The notes: generated from the letters alone by a model not told the origin. Positions 26,238 through 44,186 are shown, numbered from the stretch's first letter. The stretch is 64,000 nucleotides of DNA from Dehalococcoidia bacterium (GCA_965197585.1 OZ240215.1:2496001-2560000); one strand, 5' to 3'. Translations and numbers: made by a program.

Positions 26238-26281
26238 GTGACATCACCCCCTTGACCTAACTTGTACACTTGTACTATATT
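26238..26281 (+). promoter_or_regulatory. sigma70 promoter with GTGACA upstream box and LexA-like site
   Basis: GTGACA-N8-TTGACC-18-TATATT with GTAC-N4-GTAC in the spacer; same layout at 30795 and 43357. Confidence 0.6.
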
Positions 26282-26365
26282 CATATTCAAATGCCCACCC
26301 ATTTTCACTTTCCCACCACCCCCTCCCGGACACGGCAAAAAACTTTTTCTCCCTTCCAGGCGTCA

Positions 26366-26480
26366 TTCAATCAAACTAGCTACGAATTCAATCACCCTTC
26401 AATCTAGTCCAATCAATCTTCAATCAAGTTCAATCGGCTTTCAATCTAGTCCAATCAACCTCCAATCAAGACCAATCAAT
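26366..26480. repeat. AT-rich 21-nt tandem repeat (CAATC every 10-11 nt)
   Basis: CAATC at 26368, 26389, 26400, 26410, 26421, 26431, 26442, 26452, 26463, 26473. Confidence 0.85.
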
Positions 26481-26565
26481 GCCCACCTTGCCGAACACCT
26501 CCCCCCTAGCTTTCCCCTCCACCCCGTTCTAAAATCTACCGTCTCCTCACTAATACGAACACGCC

Positions 26566-27546
26566 ATGAACCAACACGCCATCCACACCGAGTCCCTCTC
26601 CCGCGATTTCAACGGCGTCCGCGCCGTCGACGGCATCGACCTCTCCGTCTCCGAAGGGGAGATCTACGCCTTCCTCGGCCCCAATGGCGCGGGAAAGACA
26701 ACCCTCGTCAGGATGCTCACCACCCTCCTTATGCCCACCGGGGGCCGAGCCTCCGTCGCTGGCTATGACATCGTCTCCGACTCCATGCAGGTCCGCCTTA
26801 GCATAGGTGCAGCCCTACAGGACGCCTCCCTCGACAACAAGCAGACCGGCCGAGAGCTCATAAAGCTCCAGGGCCGCCTCTACGGCCTATCCGGCAAGCA
26901 GATCGATATGCGCATAAAGTCCCTCGAGCCCCTCATGGACATCGGCCCCGCCATAGACCGGCTCATCGGTACCTACTCCGGCGGCATGAAGCGCAGGCTC
27001 GACCTCGCCACCGCCCTCGTCCACAATCCCAAAGTCCTCTTCCTCGACGAGCCCACTACCGGCCTCGACCCCGTCAGCCGGGCCCGAGTCTGGGAAGAGG
27101 TCCGCCGCGTCAACGCCGACCTCGGCGTCACCATCTTCCTCACAACCCACTATCTCGAAGAAGCCGACAGCCTGGCCGACCGCGTAGGAATCATCAACCT
27201 CGGCAAACTCGTAGCCGAAGGCACCCCCGCAGAGCTCAAGCGCAACATTGGCACCGACATCATAGTCGCCACCATTGAGGGAGATGGCGCCATCTCCGCC
27301 CGTGCGTTGAGGCGCGTCGGCCAAGTCGAGCAGGTCGACATTTACGACAACATCCTGAGCATCGGCGTCACCAATGGCGTCGCGGCCATGAGCGACGTAG
27401 CCCTCGCACTCAGCCGGTCCGGGGCCCGGGTCAAAGAGCTAACCCTCCGTACCCCCACCCTTGACGACGTTTTCCTCCAGGCAACCGGCGCCCGCCTAGA
27501 TGATGAGTCCCCTTCTAATACCCTCTCCCTTGACGGGAGAGGGTGA
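26566..27546 (+). CDS. DrrA-like ABC exporter ATPase
   Basis: GPNGAGKTT, YSGGMKRRLD, LDEPTTGLDP, TTHYLEEAD. Confidence 0.92.
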   Translation: MNQHAIHTESLSRDFNGVRAVDGIDLSVSEGEIYAFLGPNGAGKTTLVRMLTTLLMPTGGRASVAGYDIVSDSMQVRLSIGAALQDASLDNKQTGRELIKLQGRLYGLSGKQIDMRIKSLEPLMDIGPAIDRLIGTYSGGMKRRLDLATALVHNPKVLFLDEPTTGLDPVSRARVWEEVRRVNADLGVTIFLTTHYLEEADSLADRVGIINLGKLVAEGTPAELKRNIGTDIIVATIEGDGAISARALRRVGQVEQVDIYDNILSIGVTNGVAAMSDVALALSRSGARVKELTLRTPTLDDVFLQATGARLDDESPSNTLSLDGRG

Positions 27547-30521: not shown

Positions 30522-30637
30522 TCTTCCTCCACCTATCCCTAATACTGCCCATTCTACCCCACCCCCCCACCCCCTCCGTCATTCCAGCCGCCGAGAGCCG
30601 AAATCCATCCCGTCTCCCTTCTACCCAGTACTGAACT

Positions 30638-30676
30638 AGAGGCCCGCACGGGTGCTGTGCACCCGTGCGGGCCTCT
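30638..30676. terminator. Perfect 18-bp hairpin, terminator-like
   Basis: AGAGGCCCGCACGGGTGC-TGT-GCACCCGTGCGGGCCTCT. Confidence 0.55.
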
Positions 30677-30794
30677 GTTCTTATCTCCCCCTCTCCCTTG
30701 AAGGCCCTAAGGGTCGAAGATGCGCCTATGGCGTGAGAGGGGGATCAAGGGGGTGAGGGTTCCCCTGTGGGGCTGGGGCGGTGTCCCCAAAAGT

Positions 30795-31493
30795 GTGACA
30801 CGAACCCCTTGACCCTACCCAAACATACGTGCTACTATCCTCACCGTTCGAACACCAACCTAACTTACCCAAGGAGGAACCAAAAACCCAGGGAAGCCCA
30901 CCCGACCCACCCGAGGACTCAACGTCCAAGCCCATCCCAAAGGCCCTCGCTCAGGCCCGCGGCTCAAGCTGGAACATCCGCCTCAGGCGGGAAACGACGC
31001 CATCTCCTCCTCCCACGGGCCCGGCTCACCCTTCCCCCTACTTCCAGGCGATGGAAGGTCCACAATACTAAACGGCATGTCCCTTGCAAAGGACCCCTGC
31101 CGGAATAGCCCCGCTCACGCCGGGCTAAAACACTCGGGCCTCACGGCCCTTGGAAAATCTCCCCCGTCGTTCCCTTCGGAGATCCCCATACACCCAGCGA
31201 CGGCAGCGAGAAAACGCTCGCCATCCCTCCGAGTGGCCTAGAGAAGTCTGGTGGTAGAGGCAGCCCCGAGGCGAGGACCCCTCGCTTCTCTACCACGTCA
31301 TTACAGAAACACGAGGCTGAACCAGGCTGGCCTCCCGCCCCCTGAATCCGAGTCCAGGACCTTCCATCGCCTGCCCCCTCCCAAACCAAACAGAACAAAC
31401 CGAAACCCCACAATCGAAGATGGAACATCCGCCTCTGGAGGATCCGCCTCTGGAGGACTGAAGAAAAACCCGGTGTGTCACCAACCTACCGGA
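30795..31493 (+). ncRNA. Candidate large structured ncRNA element, copy 1
   Basis: Own promoter, no credible ORF, 17-bp long-range stem 31045-31061/31357-31373, homologous to 43357-44062. Confidence 0.55.
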
Positions 31494-31576
31494 TCGGTAC
31501 GGTTCGTTGACCCGACATTTACCCCAAATGTATACTCGAATTCATCTGAGGCCCCGCTTTTATCAGGAGGAATATC

Positions 31577-32740
31577 ATGACCCGTTCCATCGTAATCGAC
31601 GCCGACAGCCACATCATGGAACCGCCCACCTTGTGGCAGGAGTACATGGACCCCGAGTTCCGTAGCCGGGCCCTGCGAATCAGTGCGGATGAATTCGGCT
31701 TGGAGTATCTCGACATCGATGGCAAGGTCAGCATCGGGTACAACGGGGGCACCCTGGGCAGGATTGCGGGCGTCGACCAGACCCGGCAGTGGATGATGGA
31801 GCATCCCACCCTCCCCTATGACGAGATCAAGAACTTCGCCCCGGGATCCGTAGACCCCCACGCTCGGATCAAACACCTGGATAGGCACGGTGTCGACAAG
31901 ACCTTCCTCTTCCCGACCCTCGGCCTCGGTTGGGAAGCCGAGTGCGAAGACCCTGCACTTTCCGCCGCCTATTGCACCGCCTACAACCGCTGGCTTGTCG
32001 ATTTCTGTGCGCCCTACCCCGACCGGCTGATCCCCATAGCCCACGTCACGGTGCGAGACGTGAACGAGGGCATCAAGGAATTGGAGAGGGCCGCAAGGGA
32101 TGGCATGAAGGGCGCATTCATCTGTCCGGCGCCCATGAACGGCATCCGCTACAGCCACGAATACTATGACCGTTTCTGGGCCACCGCCCAGGACCTGGAC
32201 ATGCCCATAACCTTCCACGTAGTCCTCAACCCCGACTACCCCGGCCGCAACTCTTATCCTGAAGACGAGACCGGCCTCGGCCCCGTGTTCTTCAACAACG
32301 TGATGACCTTCGCCGACCCCCTGATCAGCTTTACCTGCATGATGGGCGACGGCACCTTCGAAAAGTTCCCCGGCCTGAAACTGTCCATGGTCGAAGTCGG
32401 CTGTACCTGGCTCCTCCACTGGCTCGACATGATGGATTTCAAAACCGGTCGGTTCAGCTTCGACATGTCCCTTACCATGACCCCCAGTGAGTACTTCCGT
32501 CGCCAGGTCTGGGTCAGCGCTGAACCTATCGAAAAGGGCCTCGGCGCAGTGGCCCAGATGGTCGGGACCGACCGCTTCATGTGGGGTTCCGACTGGCCCC
32601 ACCCCGAGGGCCACACCGACCCCCTCAACAAGGTCAAGCACAACATCGCAAGCCTTTCGGAAGCCGACCAGAACAAGATCCTGGGCGAAAACGCCCTCGC
32701 CATGTACGGCCTGTCCGTGCCCGCCCCTGCCGTGGGCTAG
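31577..32740 (+). CDS. Amidohydrolase_2 family protein (paralog 1)
   Basis: DADSH, AYNRWL, FWA..QDL..P..FH, WGSDWPHPEG. Confidence 0.92.
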   Translation: MTRSIVIDADSHIMEPPTLWQEYMDPEFRSRALRISADEFGLEYLDIDGKVSIGYNGGTLGRIAGVDQTRQWMMEHPTLPYDEIKNFAPGSVDPHARIKHLDRHGVDKTFLFPTLGLGWEAECEDPALSAAYCTAYNRWLVDFCAPYPDRLIPIAHVTVRDVNEGIKELERAARDGMKGAFICPAPMNGIRYSHEYYDRFWATAQDLDMPITFHVVLNPDYPGRNSYPEDETGLGPVFFNNVMTFADPLISFTCMMGDGTFEKFPGLKLSMVEVGCTWLLHWLDMMDFKTGRFSFDMSLTMTPSEYFRRQVWVSAEPIEKGLGAVAQMVGTDRFMWGSDWPHPEGHTDPLNKVKHNIASLSEADQNKILGENALAMYGLSVPAPAVG

Positions 32741-32759
32741 ACGAAAAGGAGTATCTGCT

Positions 32760-33920
32760 ATGGCACCTGGAATAGTTGTCGACTCGGACAGCCACATCCT
32801 GGAACCCGCCACTATGTGGAGGGACTACATTGATCCTGACTACCGCTCGCGCGCCATGGGCATTGAGTTCGACGAACTGGGTCTCGAATACCTGGACATC
32901 GACGGCAAGATGAGCAGCGGCTACAACGGCGGCGCTCTTGGCCGCATCGCCGGCGTCGAGAAGGACCGCGAGTGGATTATGGGTCACGCTACCCTCCCCT
33001 ACGCCGAGGCCGCCACCCTCGCCCCCGGCGCTGCCTACCCCGCCGAGAGAATCAAGCACCTCGCCAGGGAGGGCGTCGATAAGACCTTCCTCTTCCCCAG
33101 CCTCGGCCTCGGTTGGGAAGCCGAGTGTGAAGACGCCGAAATCTCCGACGCCTATTGCCGGGCCTACAACCGCTGGCTCGTCGATTTCTGCAAGGATCAC
33201 CCGGACCAGCTCTTCCCCGTGGCCCACGTCTCCGTCAGAGAGGTCGAGTTCGGTGTCGCCGAGCTCCAGCGCGCCGCCAAGGACGGTATGAAGGGCGCTT
33301 TCATCTGCCCTGCCCCCGTCAACGGCATCCGCTACGGAGACTCCTATTACGACCCCTTCTGGGCTGCCGCCCAGGACCTCGACATGCCTATCACCCTGCA
33401 CGTCATCTTCAACCCCAACTACGTCGGCAAGCACCTCTACCCCGACCACCCCGGCCTCGGGCCCGAGTTCTTCGTCGAGTCCATGGTCTTCGGCGATCCC
33501 TTCCTCTCCTTCACCAACATGATGACCGAAGGCGTATTCGAAAAGTTCCCCAACCTCCGCATCTCCATGGTCGAGATTGGCTCCACCTGGGTCGCCCACT
33601 GGCTCGACTTCCTGGACTTCAAGTTCTCTCGCTTCGGCTTCGACACCATCCTCACCATGAAGCCCAGCGAGTACTTCAAACGCCAGTGCTGGATCAGCGC
33701 CGAACCTATAGAGAAAGGCCTGGGCGCCGTGGCCCAGATCGTCGGCACGGACCGCTTTCTCTGGGGCTCCGACTGGCCCCACCCCGAGGGCCACACCGAC
33801 CCCCTGAGCAAGGTCAAGGCCAACATCGCCGATCTCCCGGAAGCAGACCAGCGCAAGATTCTCGGCGAAAACGCCCTAGCCCTCTACCGCCTGGCCTCCC
33901 CGGCTCCGGCTGTAGGGTAG
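32760..33920 (+). CDS. Amidohydrolase_2 family protein (paralog 2)
   Basis: Close tandem paralog; DSDSH, WGSDWPHPEG; SD AAGGAG before ATG 32760. Confidence 0.92.
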   Translation: MAPGIVVDSDSHILEPATMWRDYIDPDYRSRAMGIEFDELGLEYLDIDGKMSSGYNGGALGRIAGVEKDREWIMGHATLPYAEAATLAPGAAYPAERIKHLAREGVDKTFLFPSLGLGWEAECEDAEISDAYCRAYNRWLVDFCKDHPDQLFPVAHVSVREVEFGVAELQRAAKDGMKGAFICPAPVNGIRYGDSYYDPFWAAAQDLDMPITLHVIFNPNYVGKHLYPDHPGLGPEFFVESMVFGDPFLSFTNMMTEGVFEKFPNLRISMVEIGSTWVAHWLDFLDFKFSRFGFDTILTMKPSEYFKRQCWISAEPIEKGLGAVAQIVGTDRFLWGSDWPHPEGHTDPLSKVKANIADLPEADQRKILGENALALYRLASPAPAVG

Positions 33921-33945
33921 GTCTCAATCCACCAACGAAAGAAAG

Positions 33946-33979
33946 ACGCCGGACTGTTGAACAGTCCGGCGTTCTTTTC
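33946..33979. terminator. Intrinsic terminator
   Basis: 12-bp stem ACGCCGGACTGT/ACAGTCCGGCGT plus T tract, between convergent genes. Confidence 0.8.
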
Positions 33980-34018
33980 TCAGTCCCATAAGGCCAGGTC
34001 CTACCTGAGGTGTTCCCA

Positions 34019-35017
34019 TTATGCGAATTGCGGCATAACCTCCCGAGCAAACGTCCTCATCATCGCCACGAACCTCGGCAGGTTCTCCGCCCAGCACCTC
34101 ATACCCAGCCCATGGACACCCGCCTCCTGATAGGCCTCGATCACCTTCGAAATCCTCCCCACAGACCCCACCAAAGACCCCGCCAACCCCTCTTCAAAGG
34201 TGTGTATCTCAGTCACCAGTGTCTTCCTCGTCATCGCCTGTGCCGCAGCGTCCTCGTCTATGTATAGGGGTATGTACCCCGTCACCTGAAAGTCCACGTC
34301 CCCCCTCCCCGACTCCGCCGCCAGCTCCCGGATACGCTTGATTCCGTCGGCCATCACGTGGGGAGGCCCTTCAGGTATCCACCCGTCGCACCGCTCGGCG
34401 ATACGGCGCATCGCCGGCTCGTACAGCTTCGGTGCCCGAGTCTTGCGCGGGTACACCACCCCTCCCCCATACAGCACCGGCACCTTAGGCGTCGTCTTCG
34501 GGAAATACGACGCGTTTTCAAACGAGATGTTCGGCCCCTGAAAGTCCACGTGCCCGCCCTGGAAGGCGGCATTCAGCACGTTGATGTATTCGTCCGTGAT
34601 ACGGTTCTTTTCGTCGTAGGGGATCTGCATCACCCGGAAGTCGCTGGGGTAGTCCCCGATCCCGACACCCAGCATCAACCTACCCCCAGAAAGAGCCTGC
34701 AAAGTCATCGCCTGCCTAGCCAAAACCCTCGGATCCCGGAGGGGCAACACCAGAATCGCCGTACCCAGCTTCACGTTTTGCGTCATCCCCGCCACCCACG
34801 TCAGCGTGCTTATAGACTCGTAGAAGTGAGGTTCTATTCCCTCACACTGCTCAATCAGCCCCGACCCCCTGTGAAGGAACCAGTCCGTATCGTAGGTCAC
34901 GTGGTCGTGGCACCACACCGAGTCGAAACCCAGGTCATCAGCCTCTAGCGCCACCCGCCTGATAGCCTCCACCCCCGCCAGCGCCCCCGAATGCGGCAGC
35001 ATAATCCCAAACTTCAT
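34019..35017 (-). CDS. LLM-class flavin/F420-dependent oxidoreductase
   Basis: GFDSVWCHDH, LGTAILVLPLRDP, LSGGRL.LGVG.G. Confidence 0.9.
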   Translation of the reverse strand: MKFGIMLPHSGALAGVEAIRRVALEADDLGFDSVWCHDHVTYDTDWFLHRGSGLIEQCEGIEPHFYESISTLTWVAGMTQNVKLGTAILVLPLRDPRVLARQAMTLQALSGGRLMLGVGIGDYPSDFRVMQIPYDEKNRITDEYINVLNAAFQGGHVDFQGPNISFENASYFPKTTPKVPVLYGGGVVYPRKTRAPKLYEPAMRRIAERCDGWIPEGPPHVMADGIKRIRELAAESGRGDVDFQVTGYIPLYIDEDAAAQAMTRKTLVTEIHTFEEGLAGSLVGSVGRISKVIEAYQEAGVHGLGMRCWAENLPRFVAMMRTFAREVMPQFA

Positions 35018-35069
35018 GATGTCACCTCCATATCAAGGCTAGGGGCAAAGATAACACACCCCATTTCAA

Positions 35070-36245
35070 CTACTTCACGTACAGCTTGTGCTCCAACCCA
35101 TCCGTCAGAGTCTTGCACCCGTCCTCCGTGACGAGAATCGTGTCGCTGTTCACCGCCCTCTTCACCCTGCCGAGACCCTGCAGGGCCACATGCCCCGCCA
35201 GCAGGTGGAAGGTCATTCCCGCCTGAAGTGGCCGGGTCTCCCCCTCCGTCATACTGATGATGTGCCCTTCGCCCCAGTCCGGCGCAAAAGCGATTCCTAT
35301 CGAATATGCCGCCCGGCTGTTTCGCTTGCTCCCCGAGCCCATTGCCTCCTCCAGGCTCTCCTGCACCAGCCGGTGTATCTCCCCCGCCGGGACCCCCGGC
35401 CTGATCGCCGACTTCGCCATAGCCATCACTTCCACACCCACCTCCCGGGCCCTGAGCAGCAGTTCAGGTGGGTCCCCGAGAAATATCTGCTGATAGGTCG
35501 CCGCGTGATAGCGGTTAATACACCCCGGCATCTCTATTGTCACGCTATCCCCGGGCTGTATCACGTTCCGATACCACGTCGAATGGGTCATCGAGTCCCG
35601 CTCCCCCGTCCTTATGAATATCGGCAGTCCCGTATACTCGCTCCCCGCCTTTATCTGCGCCCGATGAATCTCCGCCGCCACGTCGTTCTCCGTCACCCCC
35701 ACCTGGCAGGCCTCGATCCCCGCCCTCAACCCCGCCTCCGCCGTCTTCGCCGCCTGCCTTATGTACTCGATCTCCTGCGCTGATTTCACCATCCTCCCCT
35801 CCTCCACCAGCCCCGACCCATCCACAAAAGTCGCTGACGATAAGGCAGCCGCAAGCCCCTTCTCATCACGAGATGTCAGGAAGAACGAGTCATATTGCAC
35901 CCCGATACGCGCATCTGCCTTACCCAGGTCCGTTAGCACGTCCCGCGTGTGGGCTATCCAGTCCTCATGGTCTTCGTAGGGCCGGCTGTCCTCGACCCAG
36001 GATTGAGGCGCAATGTTGGACTCCTCATTGAGCCGGGTGATGAACACCGGCTCCCGGTCCATCGTCACTATCAGCATCTGGTACCAGTAGTAGCCGGGAG
36101 TCTGGTAACCGGAAACGTAATACAAGTTCTCCGGCGAGTTGACCAGCAGAACATCAATCCCCCGTTCTTCCATCCGGTGTCGCAGCGCATCAAGCCGCCC
36201 TTGATATTCCTCCAGCGTGAAGAACTGGTACTTGGGGCTCCTCAT
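35070..36245 (-). CDS. M24 pita-bread hydrolase, DoeA/EutD- or creatinase-like (paralog 1)
   Basis: PENLYY.SGY, R.VKS..EI, RYHA, YSIGIAFAPDWGEG. Confidence 0.85.
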   Translation of the reverse strand: MRSPKYQFFTLEEYQGRLDALRHRMEERGIDVLLVNSPENLYYVSGYQTPGYYWYQMLIVTMDREPVFITRLNEESNIAPQSWVEDSRPYEDHEDWIAHTRDVLTDLGKADARIGVQYDSFFLTSRDEKGLAAALSSATFVDGSGLVEEGRMVKSAQEIEYIRQAAKTAEAGLRAGIEACQVGVTENDVAAEIHRAQIKAGSEYTGLPIFIRTGERDSMTHSTWYRNVIQPGDSVTIEMPGCINRYHAATYQQIFLGDPPELLLRAREVGVEVMAMAKSAIRPGVPAGEIHRLVQESLEEAMGSGSKRNSRAAYSIGIAFAPDWGEGHIISMTEGETRPLQAGMTFHLLAGHVALQGLGRVKRAVNSDTILVTEDGCKTLTDGLEHKLYVK

Positions 36246-36267
36246 ATCTGCTCCTTCGGTCTAGTCG

Positions 36268-37428
36268 TTACTTGACGAACAACTTCTGTTCCACACCACC
36301 CGTCAGCGTCTCACAACCGTCCTCCGTGACCAGGACAGTGTCGCTGCAGAGAATGCCCCCGAACCCCGGGACCCGAACCCCGGGAATCAGGTGGAATGCC
36401 ATCCCGGCCTGCAGAGGTCGCTCCTCACCTCTAGTGATGCTGATGATGTGCCCTTCTCCCCAGTCGGGAGCGAAGGCTATGCCTATCGAGTACGCCGCCC
36501 GACGCTCCAGTTTCGCCCCCAGGTCCGCCGAGTCCAGCATCTCCTTGATCTCTTCGAACAGGTCCCCCGCCACGACCCCCGGCCTGATCTTCTCCTTGGC
36601 CTTCTTCAGGGTGTCGGTAACCACATCCATCCCCCTCACCATCATCTCCGACGGCTCCCCGATATACACTTCCCTCATCATGGCGACGTGATAACGGTTC
36701 ACGCACCCCGGCACCTCGAAGAAGACTACCTCGTTTTCCTGCAAAGGCCTCCTGTACCAGGTGGCGTGCGTCATTGTAGACCGCACACCCGAGGCCACAA
36801 AAATCGGCAAGCCCGTGTATTCGCTTCCTGCCTTGATCTGTGCCCTGTGCATCTCCGCCGCCACGTCGTTCTCTGTCGCGCCGAGCCCCACCGCCTCTAT
36901 CCCCGCCAGGGTAGCCGCCTCTGCAGCCTTAGCTGCCTGCCGCATGTACTCGATCTCCTGTGGAGACTTGATCATCCGCCCCTCTTCGATCAGTCCCGTG
37001 CTGTCCACGAACTTGGCCCCCGGCATCAGGCCCTTCAGCTTCAGATAGTCCCTTGCCGGAAGAAAGAAACTCCCAAGCTCCATCCCGATCGTCTTCCCCC
37101 CGAGCCCCAGGTCCACCAGCACGTCCCGAGTCTTCTCCACCCAGTCCTCATAGTCCTCATACGGCCGCCGGTCCTCGACCCACCCCAGCTCCCGCATGTT
37201 TGAGTCCTCAACCCGCCGCGTGATCGACACAGGCTCCCGGTCCATTGGCACAACCAGCGTCTGCCACCAGTAATACCCTGGCGTCTGGTAGCCTGAGAGG
37301 TAGTACAGGTTCTCCGGCGTGTTCACCAGCACCGCATCCACCCCCAACCCCTCCATCCGCCCCCGAAGCGCATCGAGCCTTTGCTGGTACTCCTCCAGCT
37401 CAAAATACTGCCAGTTCGGTTTCTTCAC
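36268..37428 (-). CDS. M24 DoeA/EutD-like hydrolase (paralog 2)
   Basis: Same motifs as paralog 1. Confidence 0.85.
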   Translation of the reverse strand: MKKPNWQYFELEEYQQRLDALRGRMEGLGVDAVLVNTPENLYYLSGYQTPGYYWWQTLVVPMDREPVSITRRVEDSNMRELGWVEDRRPYEDYEDWVEKTRDVLVDLGLGGKTIGMELGSFFLPARDYLKLKGLMPGAKFVDSTGLIEEGRMIKSPQEIEYMRQAAKAAEAATLAGIEAVGLGATENDVAAEMHRAQIKAGSEYTGLPIFVASGVRSTMTHATWYRRPLQENEVVFFEVPGCVNRYHVAMMREVYIGEPSEMMVRGMDVVTDTLKKAKEKIRPGVVAGDLFEEIKEMLDSADLGAKLERRAAYSIGIAFAPDWGEGHIISITRGEERPLQAGMAFHLIPGVRVPGFGGILCSDTVLVTEDGCETLTGGVEQKLFVK

Positions 37429-37494
37429 CTATTCCTCCGTTGCCCTCTCTCTTTGTTGATCCATTGCCTTACCCCGCCATCTTAGGCGGGGTAT

Positions 37495-37539
37495 TCCGCT
37501 CGCCCTGAGCTGAGTCGAAGGGTCTCAAGAGCGGAATCG
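37495..37539. repeat. REP-like repeat family B (CCGCTCGCCCTGAGC-n-GTCGAAGGG)
   Basis: Related copies near 42335, 43176, 47396, 54991 and inside the MITEs. Confidence 0.75.
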
Positions 37540-37636
37540 GTGGGGTGTCCCGGCCCCCGCCCGGAGTTACGCAAAGGTCTCTCGATGGGAGAGGGCCAGG
37601 GTGATCCCCGTTCTTGTGACTGGAAGGTCTATCCCC

Positions 37637-38797
37637 CTACTTCGAAAACAGCTTCCTCTCCACATTCCCAGTTATCGGCTCACAACCGGTCTCCGTCACC
37701 AACACCGTCTCGCTCACCCCCACCGACGACAGCCCCGGTATAAAAATAGCCGGTATCAGGTGGAAGGTCATCCCGGCCTTCAACTCCCGGTATTCACCCT
37801 CGTTCATGCTGATAATGTGCCCTTCGCCCCAGTCCGGCGCAAACGCTATTCCTATGGAATATGCTGCCCGGTGAGTCAGCTCCACCCCCAGCCCCGCCCC
37901 CCCGATGACGTTCTTGCACACCATGTGGGCGTCGTGAGCCGTGACCCCGGGTTTAATAAATTTGATCATTTCCTCCAGGGCCTCAGCCATGACGGCCGTC
38001 GCCTTTATGGACCCCTCCGGCGGATCACCCAGGTACACGTTCCGCATCTGCGAGGCGTGGTACCGGTTGATGCAACCCGATAGCTCCAGGAACACCGTGT
38101 CCCCTGGCTGTATCGTTTCCCGATACCACGTTACGTGCCCCAGGAACGACCTCTTACCGGCGGTGACGAACAGGGGAAGCCCCGTGTATTCGCTCCCCGC
38201 CTTTATCTGCGCCGCATAGACCGCCGCCGCGACTTCATTCTCCGTCACCCCGACCTCCGACGCCTCTATCCCCGCCAGTACCCCCGCCTCCGTGGCCCGG
38301 GCTGCCTGCGTAATGTACTCGATCTCCTTCGGCGACTTGATCATCCTCCCCTCTTCCACCATCATCGAGCAGTCCACCCACTTCGCGTCCGGCAGCATCC
38401 CCTTCAACCTGTCGTAGTCCTGGATGGTTATGAACCAGGAGCTCATCTCCACACCTATCCTCTTCGACCCCATCCCCAGGTCCTCCAGCGTGTCCCGCGT
38501 CCGAGCCACCCAGTCGTCCGAGTCCCCGTAGGGCCGGCTGTCCTCCACCCAGGTCAGGTGCTCCACGTTGGAGTTTTCCAGGAGGCGGGTTATGAACACC
38601 GGCTCCCGGTCCATCGTAACTATGAGGGTCTGGTACCAGTAGTAGCCGGGGGTCTGGTACCCGGTTAGGTAATACAGGTTCTCCGGCGTGTGCACCATCA
38701 TGCAGTCCACACCCTTCGCCTCCATCCGCGCCCTTAGAGCGTCCAGCCTGCCCTGGTATTCCTCCAGGGTGAAGTACTGCCAAGTTGCCGTCTTCAT
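37637..38797 (-). CDS. M24 DoeA/EutD-like hydrolase (paralog 3)
   Basis: Same motifs as paralog 1. Confidence 0.85.
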   Translation of the reverse strand: MKTATWQYFTLEEYQGRLDALRARMEAKGVDCMMVHTPENLYYLTGYQTPGYYWYQTLIVTMDREPVFITRLLENSNVEHLTWVEDSRPYGDSDDWVARTRDTLEDLGMGSKRIGVEMSSWFITIQDYDRLKGMLPDAKWVDCSMMVEEGRMIKSPKEIEYITQAARATEAGVLAGIEASEVGVTENEVAAAVYAAQIKAGSEYTGLPLFVTAGKRSFLGHVTWYRETIQPGDTVFLELSGCINRYHASQMRNVYLGDPPEGSIKATAVMAEALEEMIKFIKPGVTAHDAHMVCKNVIGGAGLGVELTHRAAYSIGIAFAPDWGEGHIISMNEGEYRELKAGMTFHLIPAIFIPGLSSVGVSETVLVTETGCEPITGNVERKLFSK

Positions 38798-38835
38798 TTA
38801 TATCTCCCTTCTCTTCGAATCATATCCCCTTGCCC

Positions 38836-40371
38836 TTACCCACCCCTTTTCCGCTTTACCGACCGGCCCAAGGCCACAAGGAACATCACGCTCATCCCCT
38901 CGGCCGCCGGCCCAAAGAACTTAATAACCTCGTCGTCGTAGAAGGTCAGCCCGCTCGCCCCGAACCCCATCCCGTAGGCCATCAGGTACAACCGACCCCC
39001 TATTATCCCCGACTCCAGCTGTGCCATCCGATACCCTCGGTTCCCGAAAGCATCCAACACCTGTTTCAAGTCCGACAGCATGTACACGTCGACACTGGCG
39101 TCGGCGGGGATCTGCTGATCAAGGCCCAGGTGCCCCGCCTCCCCCCTGAAATCACCCTCCTTTAGCAGTTCCAGCCCGTGCTCCCCACGATCATAGCGGT
39201 ACGCCCCCGAGGCCAAACCCTCGACCGCGTTGACTATCAGGAACAGCTCGTTCATAGACGCCCCGTACGGCGACAGGAAATCGGCGTCGATCCCCCTCGT
39301 TGAGAAGTGCAGAGCCGCCGACAGCTCCTCTATCGAGATCGGGTCTTGAGCAAACGTCCTCGTAGAACCCCGGCGCAAGATGGTCTCCTCCAGACCCCGC
39401 ACCCTTACGTCTCCTTCTCGCGGCAGCTGCACCATGTTGCCCGCAGTTTCGTATGATCGCGATGCCGGTGTCCTGCCCCTCAAGTCTGCCAATTCCTTCG
39501 GCGACTCCAGTGACGAGCTTCTATTCATTCCATAGATCGCCGGGTATTCCACCATCTTCGGCGAAAGAGGCTCGATAGGCATTTCCAGCGCATCCATCGG
39601 GAGGGAAGCCGCGGGTGTAGCCTCCGAGGTCCTCCCCAACGGCACCAGCGCTACGACCGATTCCTTCTCAGCCTCCAGCCCCAACAGTCGATGCACTTCC
39701 TCGTCCACAAACGAGGTAACTACCTTCGAAGGCACCGCGGCCCCCGACGTCGCAGCCAGAGTGTTGGCCAGCAAAGTCCCCGCATCCCAGAAAGCATGCC
39801 TGTACGCCCGCGCCCCGTACTTCCAGGCGTTCCGCCAGTGCGTGTCCGCAAGCACAAGCGTAACCGGAGCTTCTACTACCGACGCCTCGTGCCCCGACGC
39901 CCTTGCCAGCACACCCCGGTAGTCGCCCTCCCTTAGTCGCACCAGCCCGAAGTCGTTAGGCCCGAAGTGGTACACCCCTGCATCCAGGCCTGGCAGGTTC
40001 CCACACACCACGTACAAGTCGATGTGATAAAGGGCCCCGGTGCAGGCCGCAGCCCGGAAATACAATTCCCCGCCGGGGTAGGGCTTTCTCTTCGTGATCC
40101 CCCCCGAGAGATACAGGACCCGGGCCAGCGTGCCCAGGTCCGGCATCGACGCCGTGTCGTGAGCCAGGGGCTCCGCGCCAACCGTCTCAGTTACGTTCGC
40201 CGTTATGGGACTGCCGTCCGTGGGCAACCGGACGCTATCGACGTCCTTGTAGATCTTGAAAGGAAGTGGTTGGTTCGGCCAGTCCAGTCCATGACCGCTC
40301 CGTACACTCCAGTAAGAGTGCTTGGTAGCGTTATGGTATTCCAGGGCTGCAGAACCGTCGCGATTGCCCAT
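38836..40371 (-). CDS. SagB/ThcOx-like double nitroreductase-fold protein
   Basis: YHNATKH, FRAAACTGALY, WKYGARAYR...DAG, second domain ILRRGSTR. Confidence 0.85.
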   Translation of the reverse strand: MGNRDGSAALEYHNATKHSYWSVRSGHGLDWPNQPLPFKIYKDVDSVRLPTDGSPITANVTETVGAEPLAHDTASMPDLGTLARVLYLSGGITKRKPYPGGELYFRAAACTGALYHIDLYVVCGNLPGLDAGVYHFGPNDFGLVRLREGDYRGVLARASGHEASVVEAPVTLVLADTHWRNAWKYGARAYRHAFWDAGTLLANTLAATSGAAVPSKVVTSFVDEEVHRLLGLEAEKESVVALVPLGRTSEATPAASLPMDALEMPIEPLSPKMVEYPAIYGMNRSSSLESPKELADLRGRTPASRSYETAGNMVQLPREGDVRVRGLEETILRRGSTRTFAQDPISIEELSAALHFSTRGIDADFLSPYGASMNELFLIVNAVEGLASGAYRYDRGEHGLELLKEGDFRGEAGHLGLDQQIPADASVDVYMLSDLKQVLDAFGNRGYRMAQLESGIIGGRLYLMAYGMGFGASGLTFYDDEVIKFFGPAAEGMSVMFLVALGRSVKRKRGG

Positions 40372-40466
40372 ACTCACCTTGGTAAAGGGGATATCGGAAA
40401 AGCCGCTGCGAGTATATCAAACTACCGTTGGCGGCAATTGCAAAATGCTGCAGCCTCGGTTGGGCC

Positions 40467-41936
40467 TCACACCGGCGCCCGCAGGTGCCTCCACCCCATG
40501 GATTGCTCGTACGCATAGGCCGCACGGAATATCGTCGGCTCCCCGAATGGCTTCGCCATGATCTGCATCCCGACCGGCAGCCCGAAGGAAAACCCCGCCG
40601 GCACCGAGATTGACGGTATACCCGCTATGTTAGCCGGGATCGTGCAGATATCACTCAGGTACATCTGCACCGGGTCGTCCGTCTTATCTCCGAGGGCGAA
40701 GGCCGGTGTTGGGCAGGTTGGCGCAATTAGCGCGTCGTACCGCTCAAACGCTTCGTCGAACTCCCGCCTGATCAGCGTCCTCACCTTCTGCGCCTTCAGG
40801 TAATAGGCATCGTAATACCCCGACGACAGCGCGTAAGTCCCGAGCATGATCCGCCGCTTCACCTCCGGCCCAAACCCCTGTTGCCGCGTCTTCTCCATCG
40901 CGTCCCACATGTTCTCCGCATCCTGCGCCGAGTAGCCGTACTTCACCCCGTCATACCTCGCCAGGTTCGCCGAAGCCTCAGACGGTGCGATTATGTAGTA
41001 CACCGCCAAAGCATATTTCGTGTGTGGCAGTGATACCTCCCGGTCGACCTCGGCCCCCAGCTCCTCCAGCTTCGCCAGTGCCCTTTCCATCACGTCCACC
41101 ACATCCCTCCCTATCCCCTCGACGAAGTATTCCTTCGGCACCCCGATTCGCATCCCCTTGATGTCTGGGAGCAGGGCCTCGGTGTAGTCGGGAGGCTGAA
41201 ATGGCACGGACGTCGAGTCCCGGGCATCGTGCCCTGCGATGGCGTTCATCACCAGGGCGCTGTCCGTCACGTCCTTGGTCACCGGCCCTATCTGGTCCAG
41301 TGAGCTCCCGAAAGCGACCAAACCGTACCTGCTCACTGCGCCGTAGGTCGGCTTCAGCCCTACCACCCCGCAGAACGACGCCGGTTGCCGGATGCTTCCT
41401 CCAGTGTCGGACCCCAGTGAGTACATCGCCTCCCCTGCCGCCACCGCTGCCGTCGCTCCCCCGCTGCTCCCCCCCGGCACCCGACCCAGGTCCCAGGGAT
41501 TGTGCGTAGTGTAAAAAGCCGAGTTTTCCGTCGACGACCCCATAGCGAATTCGTCCAGGTTCCCCTTGCCCACCAACACCGCCCCCGATTCCCGCAGCTG
41601 CTCTGCCACGTGGGCGTTGTAGGGTGGAACGAATTTCTCCAGCATCTTGGACGAGCACGTAGTTCGGATGCCGGTGGTGCAGATGTTGTCCTTGAGCATC
41701 ATCGGCACGCCATCCAGCGGCCCCTGCCTTCCCGACGCAGCCCTGTCGTCTGCGGCCTTGGCGTCGGCCAAAGCCCTTTCGCCCGTGACGGTAACGAAGG
41801 CCCGCACCCTCTCGTCCACGTTCTCGATGCGACCCAAGACCGCCTCGGTTAGCTCCGTAGACGTGATCTCCCGCGCCGCGAGAAGGTCCGCCGCGTCGTG
41901 AAGGGTGAGGTCGTGAAGGGGTTGCTGTCTGCTCAT
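40467..41936 (-). CDS. gatA: Asp/Glu-tRNA amidotransferase subunit A
   Basis: GGSSGG, GSDTGGSIRQP, NLARYDG, EVKRRIMLGTY. Confidence 0.97.
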   Translation of the reverse strand: MSRQQPLHDLTLHDAADLLAAREITSTELTEAVLGRIENVDERVRAFVTVTGERALADAKAADDRAASGRQGPLDGVPMMLKDNICTTGIRTTCSSKMLEKFVPPYNAHVAEQLRESGAVLVGKGNLDEFAMGSSTENSAFYTTHNPWDLGRVPGGSSGGATAAVAAGEAMYSLGSDTGGSIRQPASFCGVVGLKPTYGAVSRYGLVAFGSSLDQIGPVTKDVTDSALVMNAIAGHDARDSTSVPFQPPDYTEALLPDIKGMRIGVPKEYFVEGIGRDVVDVMERALAKLEELGAEVDREVSLPHTKYALAVYYIIAPSEASANLARYDGVKYGYSAQDAENMWDAMEKTRQQGFGPEVKRRIMLGTYALSSGYYDAYYLKAQKVRTLIRREFDEAFERYDALIAPTCPTPAFALGDKTDDPVQMYLSDICTIPANIAGIPSISVPAGFSFGLPVGMQIMAKPFGEPTIFRAAYAYEQSMGWRHLRAPV

Positions 41937-41944
41937 GGGTCAGG

Positions 41945-42232
41945 TCAACCGAGGACCGGCTTGACCCTGAAATAGTCGTCGTCTCTGCGTGGGGCGTTGG
42001 CCAAAACATCCTGCGAGGGCAGAGACGGGCGGTCTTCGTCGTCCCTGAAGACGCTGGATACGTCTACGGTGTGAGAAGTTGGGGGAACGCCCTCCGTATC
42101 CACCTCTTTGAGCACCCTGAACTGCTCCAATATATGGGACAGCTGCCCCCCGAAGGTCTCCAGGTCTTCCTCGGTCATCCCGACCCGGGCCAACAGGGCT
42201 ATGTGCTCTACTTCCTCTCGACTTAATAGCAT
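41945..42232 (-). CDS. gatC: Asp/Glu-tRNA amidotransferase subunit C
   Basis: EEVEHIALLAR, VDTEGVPPT, LANAP...YFRV. Confidence 0.95.
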   Translation of the reverse strand: MLLSREEVEHIALLARVGMTEEDLETFGGQLSHILEQFRVLKEVDTEGVPPTSHTVDVSSVFRDDEDRPSLPSQDVLANAPRRDDDYFRVKPVLG

Positions 42233-42687
42233 GGCTCCCCCAAGTACGCCATTATATACCACCTACTCCCTCCATAATTCCGCCCCCCGAGCCAGTCGCA
42301 GTTGCGCCGAGACATGAATCTATCTCCTGGCGGGGCCGCTCATCCTGAGCACCGTCGAAGGGTCGAGCGGGGGGAGTGACCCCGTAGTGACAACGCCTCG
42401 TGGTTACCCGACACCACCCCACCCCATTCTCCCCCGCCATCCCGCCCCTTACAGCGTCATCCCACCCATTACACTGTCGTTCCGAGGCCCCGCGAGGAAT
42501 CTGGGGCGGGGAGTCCGGTCCCCTCTCCATTCGAGGGGAGAGGGCTAGGGTGAGGGTGATTCCCTCCCCCGATCTCGCACCCCACGCAGAGCCTCCGAAA
42601 GAATGGAGGTAAACACCAGCCACAAACTCAGCTAAAATACATCGTCCGCAGACAAGATCTAACCCCACAACCTAAAGGCAGGAAATC

Positions 42688-43098
42688 ATGTCCCTAAACG
42701 TATACCTCCACTTCAACGGCAACTGCCGTGAGGCTTTTGAGTTCTACCGTTCAATCTTCGGCGGCGAGTTCGATCTCATCACCACCTTCGGCGACGGCCC
42801 CCCGGAAATGCAGATTCCGGAGGAAGAGCGAGATGGCATCATGCACGTCTCCTATACCATCGGCGACAACGTGCTCATGGGCAGCGACATGCCATCTAAT
42901 TTTGGCATGACCGTTAATCAGGGTAACAACTTCTCCCTCTCCTACGCCCCCGCCAGCAGGGAGGAGACCGACCAACTCTTCGCCAAGCTGTCGGAGGGCG
43001 GCAGCGTAAGCATGCCTCTGGGCGACATGTTCTGGGGCTCCTACTTCGGTGCCTGCACCGATAAGTTCGGCATCAACTGGATGCTCGACTTCGGTTAG
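42688..43098 (+). CDS. PhnB-like VOC protein
   Basis: YLHFNGNCREAFEFY, MGSD, FWG..FG...DKFGINW. Confidence 0.9.
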   Translation: MSLNVYLHFNGNCREAFEFYRSIFGGEFDLITTFGDGPPEMQIPEEERDGIMHVSYTIGDNVLMGSDMPSNFGMTVNQGNNFSLSYAPASREETDQLFAKLSEGGSVSMPLGDMFWGSYFGACTDKFGINWMLDFG

Positions 43099-43356
43099 AG
43101 TTGACCGCCCGCACCGCTGGGAAGCTGCCTCGTAATTCCGGCCCCTCATACCCTTAACCGTCCTTAGGGCGGGGAATTCCGCTCGCCCTGTCGAAGATGC
43201 TGCAAGGGGAACGTCAGCCTCGGGAGGATGCGCCTTTGGCGTGCGCCGTGGCGTAAGCTTAGTCGAAGCCTGTCCTGAGTCTCTCGAAGAGGGTCTCTAG
43301 GGCGGAATGGGGTGGCGCAGTCCCTGTTACTCACCGTGAGTCCGTTCACATAGAGA

Positions 43357-44062
43357 GTGACATCACCCTCTTGACTTTATAAGACGTATGTTCTATATTG
43401 GAAATAGTCTAGACCACCTAACCCAACCACCTTAAGGAGGTACCGCACAACCTAGGGAAGCCCACTCGACCCACCGAGGACTCAACACCCAAGCCCATCC
43501 CAAAGGCCCTCGCGCAGGCCCGCGGCACAAGCAACCGGTGCCATCTCCTCATCCCCATCGGGTCCCGTGCCCTCTTCCCTGACACCCAGGCGATGGAAGA
43601 CATCCTGGACTCACCCCGGCACAGGCCCTCCTGAGTGAAGGGCCGTCGCAGCCGATGTAGCCCACTCTTTATCCGGCGCCGGCCTTCCTCTAATGGAAGG
43701 CCGTATAGATGGGCCATAACAGCCGAAAGATGCAGCGCCTTCCTTGCAGGGCGCACTACGTGGCCGGCATTGACCTTGCCGGCGAATCGAAAGAGCCCCC
43801 CAACGTGGGGCTACAAGGGCCATCGAGCCCTTCTGGTGGACGGGGAACCCCCACACCGGGAGATTCTCTCCACCCCGACCGCCTTCACAAACACAAGTGG
43901 GGTGAGCAGGTCGGCCTCCCGCCCCCTGCGCCCGAGTCCCGGACCTTCCATTGCCTGCCCCCTCCCAACAGACAGAACGGAAACCGAAACCCCACAATCG
44001 AAGATGGAACATCCGCCTCTGGAGGACTGAATAAAAGGCCGGTGTGTCGCTAACCTACTGGA
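43357..44062 (+). ncRNA. Candidate large structured ncRNA element, copy 2
   Basis: Promoter TTGACT-17-TATATT, long-range stem 43587-43612/43934-43957, ends conserved with copy 1. Confidence 0.55.
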
Positions 44063-44186
44063 CGAGTACTCACCACCGCCGCCCCCCACCCCAATGTTGT
44101 ATTATTGCCCGCAGGCCCCGAGGCCACGTAGTCGGCAGGCGCAGGGCGGTCTCGTAAATTAATACTATCGGTAGGAATACAAGCAA

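Follow-up and report, generated by a model that had tools for sequence, protein, structure and literature searches.

In the case of HEARO/IscB omega-RNA and of IS200/IS605-type elements, a large structured RNA is present in many apparently mobile copies, some of which are without an open reading frame (ORF). Plant elements of the Pack-MULE type are non-autonomous and carry captured gene fragments. In ribosomal RNA (rRNA) precursors, a long-range helix is formed from the flanks of the structured RNA and is cut by RNase III. The closest described concept to the element treated here is the 'putative mobile promoter', which is a homologous promoter-containing non-coding sequence found upstream of unrelated genes in many copies per genome (PMC3575422). 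Additionally, a second source describes STAB-SD of the Bacillus thuringiensis cry3A mRNA, a Shine-Dalgarno sequence near the 5' end that acts as a 5' stabiliser and is not followed by a translation start (PMC4113751). Here we analysed a 64-kb window (OZ240215.1:2496001-2560000) of the Dehalococcoidia bacterium genome GCA_965197585.1, which is one contig of 3,429,519 bases and is called G000 in the following. The window carries two copies of an ORF-less repeat, copy 1 at 30795 to ~31501 and copy 2 at 43357 to ~44070 (window positions, both on the + strand), which belong to what we call family 1; related repeats that bear an ORF are called family 2. We read the family 1 repeats as genus-restricted, self-contained transcription units without ORF, made of structured, recombining cassettes of a terminase-like gene fragment, and we hold this reading to be about evenly balanced between right and wrong.

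Like mobile promoters, Correia, ERIC and REPIN elements, the family 1 units are promoter-bearing repeats whose way of moving is unexplained and which may rewire downstream expression (PMC3575422), and a conserved promoter with its leader is indeed found ahead of diverse genes. Unlike mobile promoters, they are far longer (0.65-0.85 kb), they contain a helix-closed core of 0.3-0.5 kb that by homology comes from a protein gene, they are without transposon-type terminal repeats or target duplications, and they keep a fixed distance of 5 nt to a resident -35 box. In contrast to HEARO and omega-RNA, their variable part is internal, they have no guide-like variable end and no Rfam HEARO match, and no TnpB domain goes with them. 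The likeness to Pack-MULE-type elements lies in the amplified non-coding copy of an internal host or phage gene fragment within a repeated scaffold; the differences are that family 1 is prokaryotic, is without transposase-recognised ends, keeps its base pairing and exists as many diverged cassettes of one fragment. As in rRNA precursors, promoter and leader are followed by a long helix around a structured RNA and by a trailer, the enclosed RNA not being a known stable RNA. Finally, the near-5' Shine-Dalgarno sequence of family 1 resembles STAB-SD in that, judged by sequence only, it starts no translation (PMC4113751). Literature searches on such elements in sponge Chloroflexi or Dehalococcoidia found nothing relevant.

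An initial annotation of the window had described two promoter-driven, ORF-less copies with an AAGGAGG, conserved ends and a divergent core, and this description was borne out by alignment, promoter scan, indels and stop codons. It had also located the copies correctly, but both run about 8 nt farther than it had drawn them (to ~31501 and ~44070). The parts are listed below, where R1 designates a covariance model of a 140-nt module within the copy 1 core.

30637-30677, + strand: terminator-like hairpin of 19 bp upstream of copy 1, from the terminator scan
30795-30838, + strand: copy 1 promoter, with GTGACAC at 30795-30801, -35 box TTGACC at 30809, an 18-nt spacer and -10 box TACTAT ending at 30838
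30848-31044, + strand: copy 1 5' block, a C/A-rich leader with AAGGAGG at 30871-30877, no start codon, and small hairpins
31045-31061, + strand: copy 1 closing helix, 5' half, pairing perfectly with 31357-31373 over 17 bp and recovered in the minimum-energy fold
31062-31356, + strand: copy 1 core, of the cluster-5 type with 6 members in G000, derived from a terminase-like gene; R1 module at 31157-31297, 153.8 bits
31357-31373, + strand: copy 1 closing helix, 3' half, pairing with 31045-31061
31374-31469, + strand: copy 1 3' block, a C/A-rich tail with CACAATCGAAGAT at its end, followed by two small CCGCC/GGAGG hairpins at 31422-31458
31470-31501, + strand: copy 1 terminal module, ending 5 nt upstream of the next gene's -35 box; right boundary from the element-free alleles of genomes G001 and G002
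31507-31536, + strand: resident promoter TTGACC-18-TATACT, outside the element, serving the amidohydrolase-like gene at 31577-32740
43357-43399, + strand: copy 2 promoter, with GTGACAT at 43357-43363, -35 box TTGACT at 43371, a 17-nt spacer and -10 box TATATT ending at 43399
43410-43586, + strand: copy 2 5' block, with AAGGAGG at 43434-43440
43587-43612, + strand: copy 2 closing helix, 5' half, pairing with 43934-43957 with a G-U pair and internal loops
43613-43933, + strand: copy 2 core, a singleton type in G000 with recognisable stretches of the terminase-like gene
43934-43957, + strand: copy 2 closing helix, 3' half, pairing with 43587-43612
43958-44070, + strand: copy 2 3' block, with C/A-rich tail, one small hairpin and the terminal module at ~44039-44070

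The two copies could be aligned over their whole length with a mean column identity of 77% (900-nt stretches); the difference between them lies in the middle, the 5' and 3' blocks being near-identical. The promoter scan found two sites in copy 1 and one in copy 2, compared to 0.3 and 0.2 expected from shuffles. Neither AAGGAGG is followed by ATG, GTG or TTG within the usual distance. The terminator scan gave no terminator-like site on the + strand in either copy, and transcription therefore probably reads on into the next gene. Fold stability was assessed by comparing the minimum-energy fold of each copy to 20 shuffles: copy 1 showed a z value of -6.6, with none of its shuffles equally stable. 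The long-range closing stem that had been proposed for each copy was recovered, as a perfect 17-bp helix in copy 1 and with a G-U pair and internal loops in copy 2; it is part of both minimum-energy folds and it covaries. Upstream of copy 1, the hairpin at 30637-30677 is part of a composite with a CCCCTCTCCC/GAGAGGGGG repeat that reaches 30794. This composite goes with a subset of copies and is present in filled alleles at three other polymorphic sites; as a whole, about a quarter of the copies show homology 190-280 nt upstream of the promoter. A mini-hairpin is inserted in the copy 1 leader at about 30971-30996.

Family 1 loci were counted by BLAST of the 5' and 3' end blocks against G000, a search that the initial annotation had proposed. 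It yielded 57 full copies by the 5' block plus one truncated copy, and the family is present in all eight other genomes of the genus. Both helix halves exist in 57/57 copies, 316-544 nt apart, and core lengths range from 307 to 535 nt; the -35 and -10 boxes are conserved and their spacers variable. The same promoter type also stands ahead of a tRNA gene, of some protein genes and of family 2. Indels in the 5' block measure 1, 2 and 4 nt, i.e. they are not multiples of three, the mean number of stops over 662 nt is 3.9-4.6 per + frame and 5.8-6.7 per - frame, and in group-B cores no phase is open. With stops in every frame and frame-breaking leader indels, the family 1 units are therefore non-coding. 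Two minus-strand ORFs starting from the 3' block (95 and 133 amino acids, aa) were rejected as candidates: the ATG of both is located in a hairpin unit that is optional and missing from many copies, and minus frames carry the many stops just given.

The units are built from modules. Their cores form 13 clusters (of 12, 10, 7, 6, 6, 6, 3 and 2 members, plus five singletons), copy 1 belonging to a six-member cluster and copy 2 being a singleton. Weak similarities group the clusters into two super-groups, which differ in the inner closing helix (GGTCC/GGACC versus GACGCC/GGCGTC). The proposal that structure had been retained between the two window copies while their sequence diverged is not borne out, as the two cores are different cassette types and R1 matches copy 1 and not copy 2. 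The 5' block is modular as well, and some copies in other genomes are without its entire middle or have other hairpins. The helix is followed by a C/A-rich tail with CACAAYYGAAKA at its end, by up to two small hairpins and, in 27/57 copies, by the 30-nt terminal module, which in G000 is confined to family members (22 BLAST hits, all within them). The GTGACA...TGTC(A/G)C ends, which had been likened to short inverted repeats, turned out to be the GTGWCAC heptamer upstream of the promoter and a part of this 3' module.

By homology, the core enclosed by the helix comes from the interior of a terminase-large-subunit-like gene, of which G000 holds intact versions elsewhere. Two of the R1 matches fall within real genes, whose open frames have 504 and 540 aa and are 77% identical to each other; a small ORF stands ahead of each, together with a promoter of the same type. 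An internal segment of this gene, about 425 nt long, aligns to the DNA of both window cores, and the core is therefore a reworked gene fragment. The halves of the closing helix correspond to a perfect 10-nt inverted repeat that bounds the segment already in the gene, where the main inner helices are present too; in the units the helix has been lengthened from these 10 nt to 14-25 bp. A six-frame search of G000 with the parent protein gave 25 matches, consisting of the two genes, the family 2 copies and several stop-interrupted family 1 cores. A derivation of the 5' block from the part of the gene that precedes the inverted repeat was also considered; the two align weakly, and this origin was not established.

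Regarding the parent protein itself, residues 310-436 match PHROG phrog_5909, 'terminase large subunit', weakly (E = 7e-6); it gave no Pfam match and no PDB sequence match, and NCBIfam returned nothing useful. Its homologues number at least 3617 and measure about 460 aa; among the matches listed, PF17289 appears on 6/120. The full-length gene was found in 12/12 genomes of the order, as a single copy in each of three other genera and in 1-4 copies in genomes of the genus; among these 12 genomes, partial copies occur only in the genus. The earlier suggestion of a large non-coding RNA or mobile element stands as far as movable and exchangeable units are concerned, while the intact protein-coding relative that it had named as evidence to the contrary does exist. 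As expected for a pseudogene, there is homology to an intact gene together with a lost frame; neutral decay in a single or few copies was not what we found. The copies do not look like neutrally decaying remnants: they are amplified, have their own promoters, have kept their pairs, and have a core that is more conserved than the neighbouring gene.

To describe this pairing, covariation was analysed at three levels. Firstly, the closing helix has 14-25 bp across copies, with G-U pairs and type-specific compensatory extensions, and nine helix pairs of invariant length hold 20 G-U cells versus 4 A-C cells, a contrast that is inflated because the structures were derived from the + strand. Secondly, an alignment of copy-1-type cores was made with 44 out of 50 full-length cores from 7 genomes, which are 75-100% identical to copy 1. 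In this alignment 98.9% of the cells in the predicted structure are paired, G-U and A-C cells number 173 and 20 (with the same inflation), and 27 cells have changed on both sides compared to 4.9 in shuffles, a value reached by 0/500 of them. Thirdly, the 140-nt module is common to the copy-1 type, other core types and family 2. In 12 hand-picked sequences, 8/30 of its pairs are compensatory, with a covariation score of 0.173 versus 0.098 in shuffles (0/500) and at most 0.073 for slid partners. With 75 distinct R1 matches, in an alignment that was fitted to the model and so favours structure, compensatory pairs rise to 12/30, cells changed on both sides amount to 101 versus 33.3 in shuffles (0/500), and the score of 0.203 compares to at most 0.077 in slid controls. 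The covariance model that the initial annotation had called for could be built and showed compensatory pairs, but it does not extend to copy 2.

Conservation is uneven. Between G000 and the related genome G005 the copy 1 core is 98% identical, compared to 95% for the adjacent gene (first 600 nt) and 90% for the whole 2.15-kb stretch. Overall identity amounts to 75-86%, while one invariant stretch of 25 nt recurs exactly in 45 places of 7 other assemblies.

The family is restricted to one genus, and the amplification of the fragment is an innovation of that genus. By blastn, the 5' block was detected in 8/8 other genomes of the genus, in none of 3 other genera of the family and in none of 29 genomes of other families of the class. 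The R1 model matches 29 places in G000 and 16-41 per genome in 9/9 genomes of the genus; neither the 3 other genera of the order nor 135 further genomes of the class gave a match. The 45 places with the invariant 25-nt stretch, searched among 185,579 species genomes, all lie in the 7 Dehalococcoidia bacterium assemblies, which are metagenome-assembled genomes; the stretch is absent from viral contigs and JGI metagenome contigs. A plasmid or phage origin of the unit was considered and rejected, since blastn against 72,556 plasmids and 50,697 phages gave no match. Novelty with respect to Rfam, as first proposed, was upheld: Rfam 15 gave 0 matches at the gathering score in the 64-kb window (families including HEARO, GOLLD, ROOL, OLE, raiA, group II intron, tmRNA and RNase P). 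At E <= 10 the two loci gave only chance-level matches, far under the gathering score and none within the cores, and at E <= 0.1 there were 0 matches for 11 core-type representatives and 2 family 2 units.

RNA data were available as four RNA-library runs of a single study labelled sponge metagenome, which carry no strand information. Between 11 and 20% of the sampled words of a 2-kb stretch were found in these runs. RNA contigs cover 30962-31326 in copy 1 and 43505-43739 in copy 2 at a depth of 2-8, like that of neighbouring genes, and long parts of a 16-kb stretch are without RNA contigs. We infer that the units are transcribed into structured non-coding RNA. One RNA contig of high depth (526 and 1167) was set aside as uninformative on the units, since it shares no more than ~21 nt with the window on either side of its 'joint'.

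Important insight can be gained by comparing the same loci between related genomes. At the copy 2 locus, G005 has the same core and G002 has a group-B core with the same 5' block, tail, module and flanks; the breakpoints of this swap fall in the helix halves. Three other loci with a shared mapped flank carry different cores between genomes, and one locus holds family 1 in G008 and family 2 in G000. These patterns suggest breakpoint exchange by homologous recombination or gene conversion through the conserved flanks. Comparison of empty and filled loci, another check proposed at the outset, revealed five presence/absence sites. The copy 1 locus is filled in G000 and G005 (939 nt), and in G001 and G002 it holds other sequence of 308 and 347 nt; at one of the four further sites, 1262 nt face 16 nt. 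The promoter at 31507-31536, which had been described as the own promoter of the gene after copy 1, was confirmed as such, being retained in the genomes without the element. At all five sites the unit-free allele retains a -35-like box and about 5 nt before it. A target duplication or a TTGAC crossover core was considered here and rejected: the 5 nt ahead of the -35 box are the same as in the empty alleles, which lack the conserved GTGACAC-CCCC stretch.

The placement of the 3' end is precise. Among the 27 module-bearing copies, TTG occurs at offset 5 after the module in 18, whereas no other offset between 0 and 29 has it in more than 2, and a -10-like hexamer follows at 16-19 nt in 23. Copy 1 fits this 5-nt spacing; copy 2 belongs to the 4 module-bearing copies in which no TTG-like triplet stands at that point.

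Altogether, these observations can be arranged into our preferred reading of self-contained, recombining transcription units. A unit begins with a strong sigma-70-type promoter and a C/A-rich leader with a start-less Shine-Dalgarno sequence, continues with a helix of 14-25 bp around a multi-hairpin core of 0.31-0.54 kb, and ends with a C/A-rich tail, followed in about half of the copies by the 30-nt terminal module. After loss of the frame, substitutions have kept and lengthened the base pairing of the captured segment. The cores are interchangeable cassettes, swapped in place between copies at the helix halves, and a module-bearing unit would come to lie with its 3' end 5 nt upstream of a resident promoter, directed at the next gene. 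The closing helix may serve in processing, like the stems of rRNA precursors, and the start-less Shine-Dalgarno sequence may be a 30S-binding 5' stabiliser. As our best guess, the RNA could act on the parental TerS/TerL-like system, or as a decoy for it.

Several points weigh against this reading. The RNA contigs are of low depth, strandless and from one study, their ends are not given, and carry-over of DNA is possible. The fold of copy 2 is only modestly stable (z = -2.39, 1/20 shuffles equally stable). In the copy-1-type alignment only 4/72 pairs have changed on both sides, a count reached by 18/500 shuffles, and most pairs never vary, so that this core is conserved chiefly in sequence. The module alignment of 75 sequences favours structure through its fitting to the model, and the use of + strand structures flatters the G-U versus A-C contrast. 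Since the main helices are already present in the intact protein gene, the fold was not invented for an RNA function. None of the five polymorphic sites is a clean insertion and none has a target duplication, the 5' boundary is fuzzy (left boundaries at about -20 to -280 nt), and no mobilising enzyme or binding partner was found. Finally, plain selfish amplification would account just as well for the gene-fragment origin.

Such an amplification is the first alternative. Here, a promoter-bearing repeat would have caught a terminase-like fragment and multiplied as a selfish or neutral repeat, the RNA being a by-product and the conservation resulting from spread and gene conversion; we regard this as possible, though on the unlikely side. 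Besides the gene-fragment origin, the mosaic, modular make-up with variable ends, the small REP-like hairpins inserted within copies, the presence/absence and cassette swaps between species, the invariance of most copy-1-type pairs and the confinement to one genus all agree with it. It accounts less well for pairing that is kept by changes in 12/30 module pairs across sub-lineages, for a helix that grew from 10 nt in the gene to 14-25 bp, for conservation as strongly uneven as an exact 25-nt stretch in 45 places against 75-86% overall, and for a core more conserved than the neighbouring gene. Nor were a transposase-like partner, terminal repeats or a target duplication found. In detail, when the units were examined as miniature inverted-repeat transposable elements, the presence/absence polymorphism between related genomes was there at the five sites, but terminal inverted repeats were not, only the 7-nt GTGWCAC near both ends that also occurs at other promoters; and BLAST of G000 with the end blocks and all cores returned only family 1, family 2 and the terminase-like genes, with no transposase-encoding partner.

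A second alternative starts from the parent gene. The units could be cis sites at the DNA level for TerS/TerL-like proteins, e.g. pac-like packaging-start or recombination sites, where the promoter only opens or marks the site. Paralogous operons of a TerS-like (132 aa) and a TerL-like protein were observed at G000 1117850-1119956 and 2872295-2874405. The origin of the core in the terminase-like gene itself, the sharing of the promoter type with these operons and the 1-4 full-length genes in the genomes of the genus speak for cis sites, as does the isolation of the operons: at the one locus examined there are no head genes nearby and the downstream neighbours are convergent (capsid and portal genes were not sought elsewhere in the genome). 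We nevertheless consider cis sites improbable. G-U-tolerant substitutions point to RNA rather than duplex DNA, the terminase assignment is weak (PHROG E = 7e-6, with no Pfam or PDB match), and known pac sites usually lie within or near the small-subunit gene. In a broader form of this idea, about 70 promoter-equipped cassettes from the terminase-like gene (~57 without ORF and about a dozen with open frame) would work together with the orphan TerS/TerL-like proteins as packaging-start or recombination sites or as anti-phage decoys, a proposal we also view as doubtful. Such a system might supply packaging or recombination sites for a process like that of gene transfer agents, or RNA or protein decoys that regulate incoming-phage terminases or defend against them; the interchangeable cores would give variety, and the 3' module would direct placement beside promoters.

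Thirdly, the units could be mobile-promoter or leader cassettes that drive the gene behind them or adjust its expression, the structured RNA being a long 5' leader or an insulator. By crude gene calls of our own (2808 genes), the downstream gene is co-oriented in 43/57 copies and the upstream gene divergent in 36/57, which, with the absence of a terminator-like site at the 3' end and the fixed 5-nt spacing of the terminal module to the -35 box, would suit such cassettes. However, the remaining 14/57 copies are not co-oriented, the downstream genes retain their own promoters, which are present also where the element is absent, and a conserved core of 0.6 kb would be superfluous for promoter delivery. 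The downstream genes are also functionally diverse, including amidohydrolase-like genes, oxidoreductases, transporters, aminoacyl-tRNA synthetases and apparent tRNAs. A riboswitch-like association with one class was not found, seven genes being amidohydrolase-like by eye and the rest unrelated. We thus judge promoter delivery an unlikely explanation.

Some observations on these neighbours can be added. Amidohydrolase-like paralogues, recognised by eye from an N-terminal D-x-H...EP...W, lie at 31577-33900 of the window and downstream of 6 other copies, and DNA searches gave 12-16 related stretches per genome of the genus. In the case of copies 1530641+ and 2399696-, a tRNA-like gene, again by eye, lies just downstream of the resident promoter.

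Family 2 brings up the question of whether the copies encode protein, be it through an unusual start or in the form of decoy subunits, truncated versions of the terminase-like protein. About nine family 2 copies were found by their promoter (G000 1590859+, 3022084+, 2280200+, 62860+, 505610-, 684518-, 3035253-, 3062928- and 3386770-). They share the closing helix and the module, often with tandem 162-nt units, and differ from family 1 in a leader with AAAGGAG and ATG. From this conserved ATG the frame is stop-free in 9/9 copies (175-258 codons; other frames have 0-13 stops), even through REP-like insertions, and 146/228 pairwise internal gaps are multiples of three. The ORF aligns to parent residues 194-376 with 45% identity (E = 9e-36), and public data hold at least 471 homologous ORFs, none of them named. 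The open frames, the gap lengths and these homologues would agree with a protein, but even family 2 is weakly constrained: the ratio of non-synonymous to synonymous variation (pN/pS) is 0.65 in a protein-guided alignment, substitutions are spread evenly over the three codon positions in the DNA alignment, and the ORF has no Pfam or PHROG match, with nothing useful from NCBIfam either. An AlphaFold2 model from 40 homologues gave no confident fold, with a mean predicted local distance difference test score (pLDDT) of 41.8 and no residue at or above 70. By its alignment, family 2 is a truncated and degenerate derivative of residues 194-376 of the terminase-like protein. For family 1, the missing start codon after the Shine-Dalgarno sequence, 3.9-4.6 stops per frame and frame-breaking indels make a coding function very improbable.

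The weakest alternative, a retron-like or otherwise reverse-transcriptase-dependent RNA or the omega-RNA of a TnpB/IscB-type nuclease, takes up the long inverted repeat around a variable region and the many copies of a structured RNA, and we give it hardly any credence, as the 3.43-Mb genome has no RVT_1 match and no TnpB zinc-ribbon, and HEARO or other Rfam matches are lacking. The absence of a reverse transcriptase near the copies, stated in the initial annotation, thus extends to the whole genome (RVT_1, PF00078; the control matched in 3/14 known genomes). For the TnpB zinc-ribbon (PF07282) the control matched in 8/14 and the genome in none, a search specific for the IscB HNH or bridge helix not having been run. 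A helix of 14-25 bp does bracket the core as retron a1/a2 arms would, yet it stems from an inverted repeat within a protein gene. Together with the absence of an Hfq gene from G000, these results argue against retro-mobility, omega-RNA and Hfq-sponge ideas, and Hfq-type binding of the A/C-rich tails, which had also been considered, was rejected for lack of that gene.

An orientation linked to replication, as in IS200/IS605-like elements, was likewise tried and dismissed: 37/57 copies lie on the locally C-rich strand compared to 1388/2808 crude genes, a weak bias, and no TnpB is present. The cumulative GC skew of G000 is irregular and does not return to zero, with a minimum near 2.64 Mb and a maximum near 1.04 Mb. 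Family 1 copies lie mainly on the + strand up to 2.54 Mb and mainly on the - strand past 2.68 Mb.

If the units are transcribed and constrained, as is suggested by the pattern of substitutions, they would be an instance, rare among bacteria, of a structured RNA in many copies that arose from a fragment of a protein gene. We found no description of in-place cassette swaps of whole folded cores, nor of a placement 5 nt upstream of a resident -35 box, which may point to a promoter-directed mechanism of integration or recombination. The link to an orphan terminase-like gene pair offers a handle on function in an uncultured Dehalococcoidia lineage. There is also a caution for RNA discovery, in that covariation and long helices can be inherited from coding sequence.

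Several smaller repeats accompany the units. A small hairpin unit CCGCC-NNN-GGNGG, often after GGAAC and sometimes in tandem, occurs in leaders and tails of families 1 and 2 and also alone in intergenic DNA; its sites in the window are 31422-31458, 30971-30996, 44005-44026 and 43230-43262. A REP-like hairpin, GTCATTCCGGCC...GGCCGGAATCC with variants, is spread over intergenic regions and inserted in some cores: it is found at 30583-30612 of the window, inside cluster-0 cores and in about 40 other places of G000. A repeated motif of about 40 nt, with two CAATCAAA boxes flanking CACGCCTGAGTCCGCAC, is present in several promoter-proximal regions, namely at the copy 1 site in G001 and G002, in the 3' flank of G000 copy 2369990 and at the end of the family 2 locus 3022084+; in G002 it comes after a GTGACAC-type promoter. 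Finally, at 26238-26566 of the window a promoter of the type seen in the units, GTGACAT..TTGACC-17-TACTAT, is followed by a leader of about 270 nt with about ten (T/C)CAATC(A/T) motifs, which precedes an apparent ABC-transporter ATPase gene starting at 26567.

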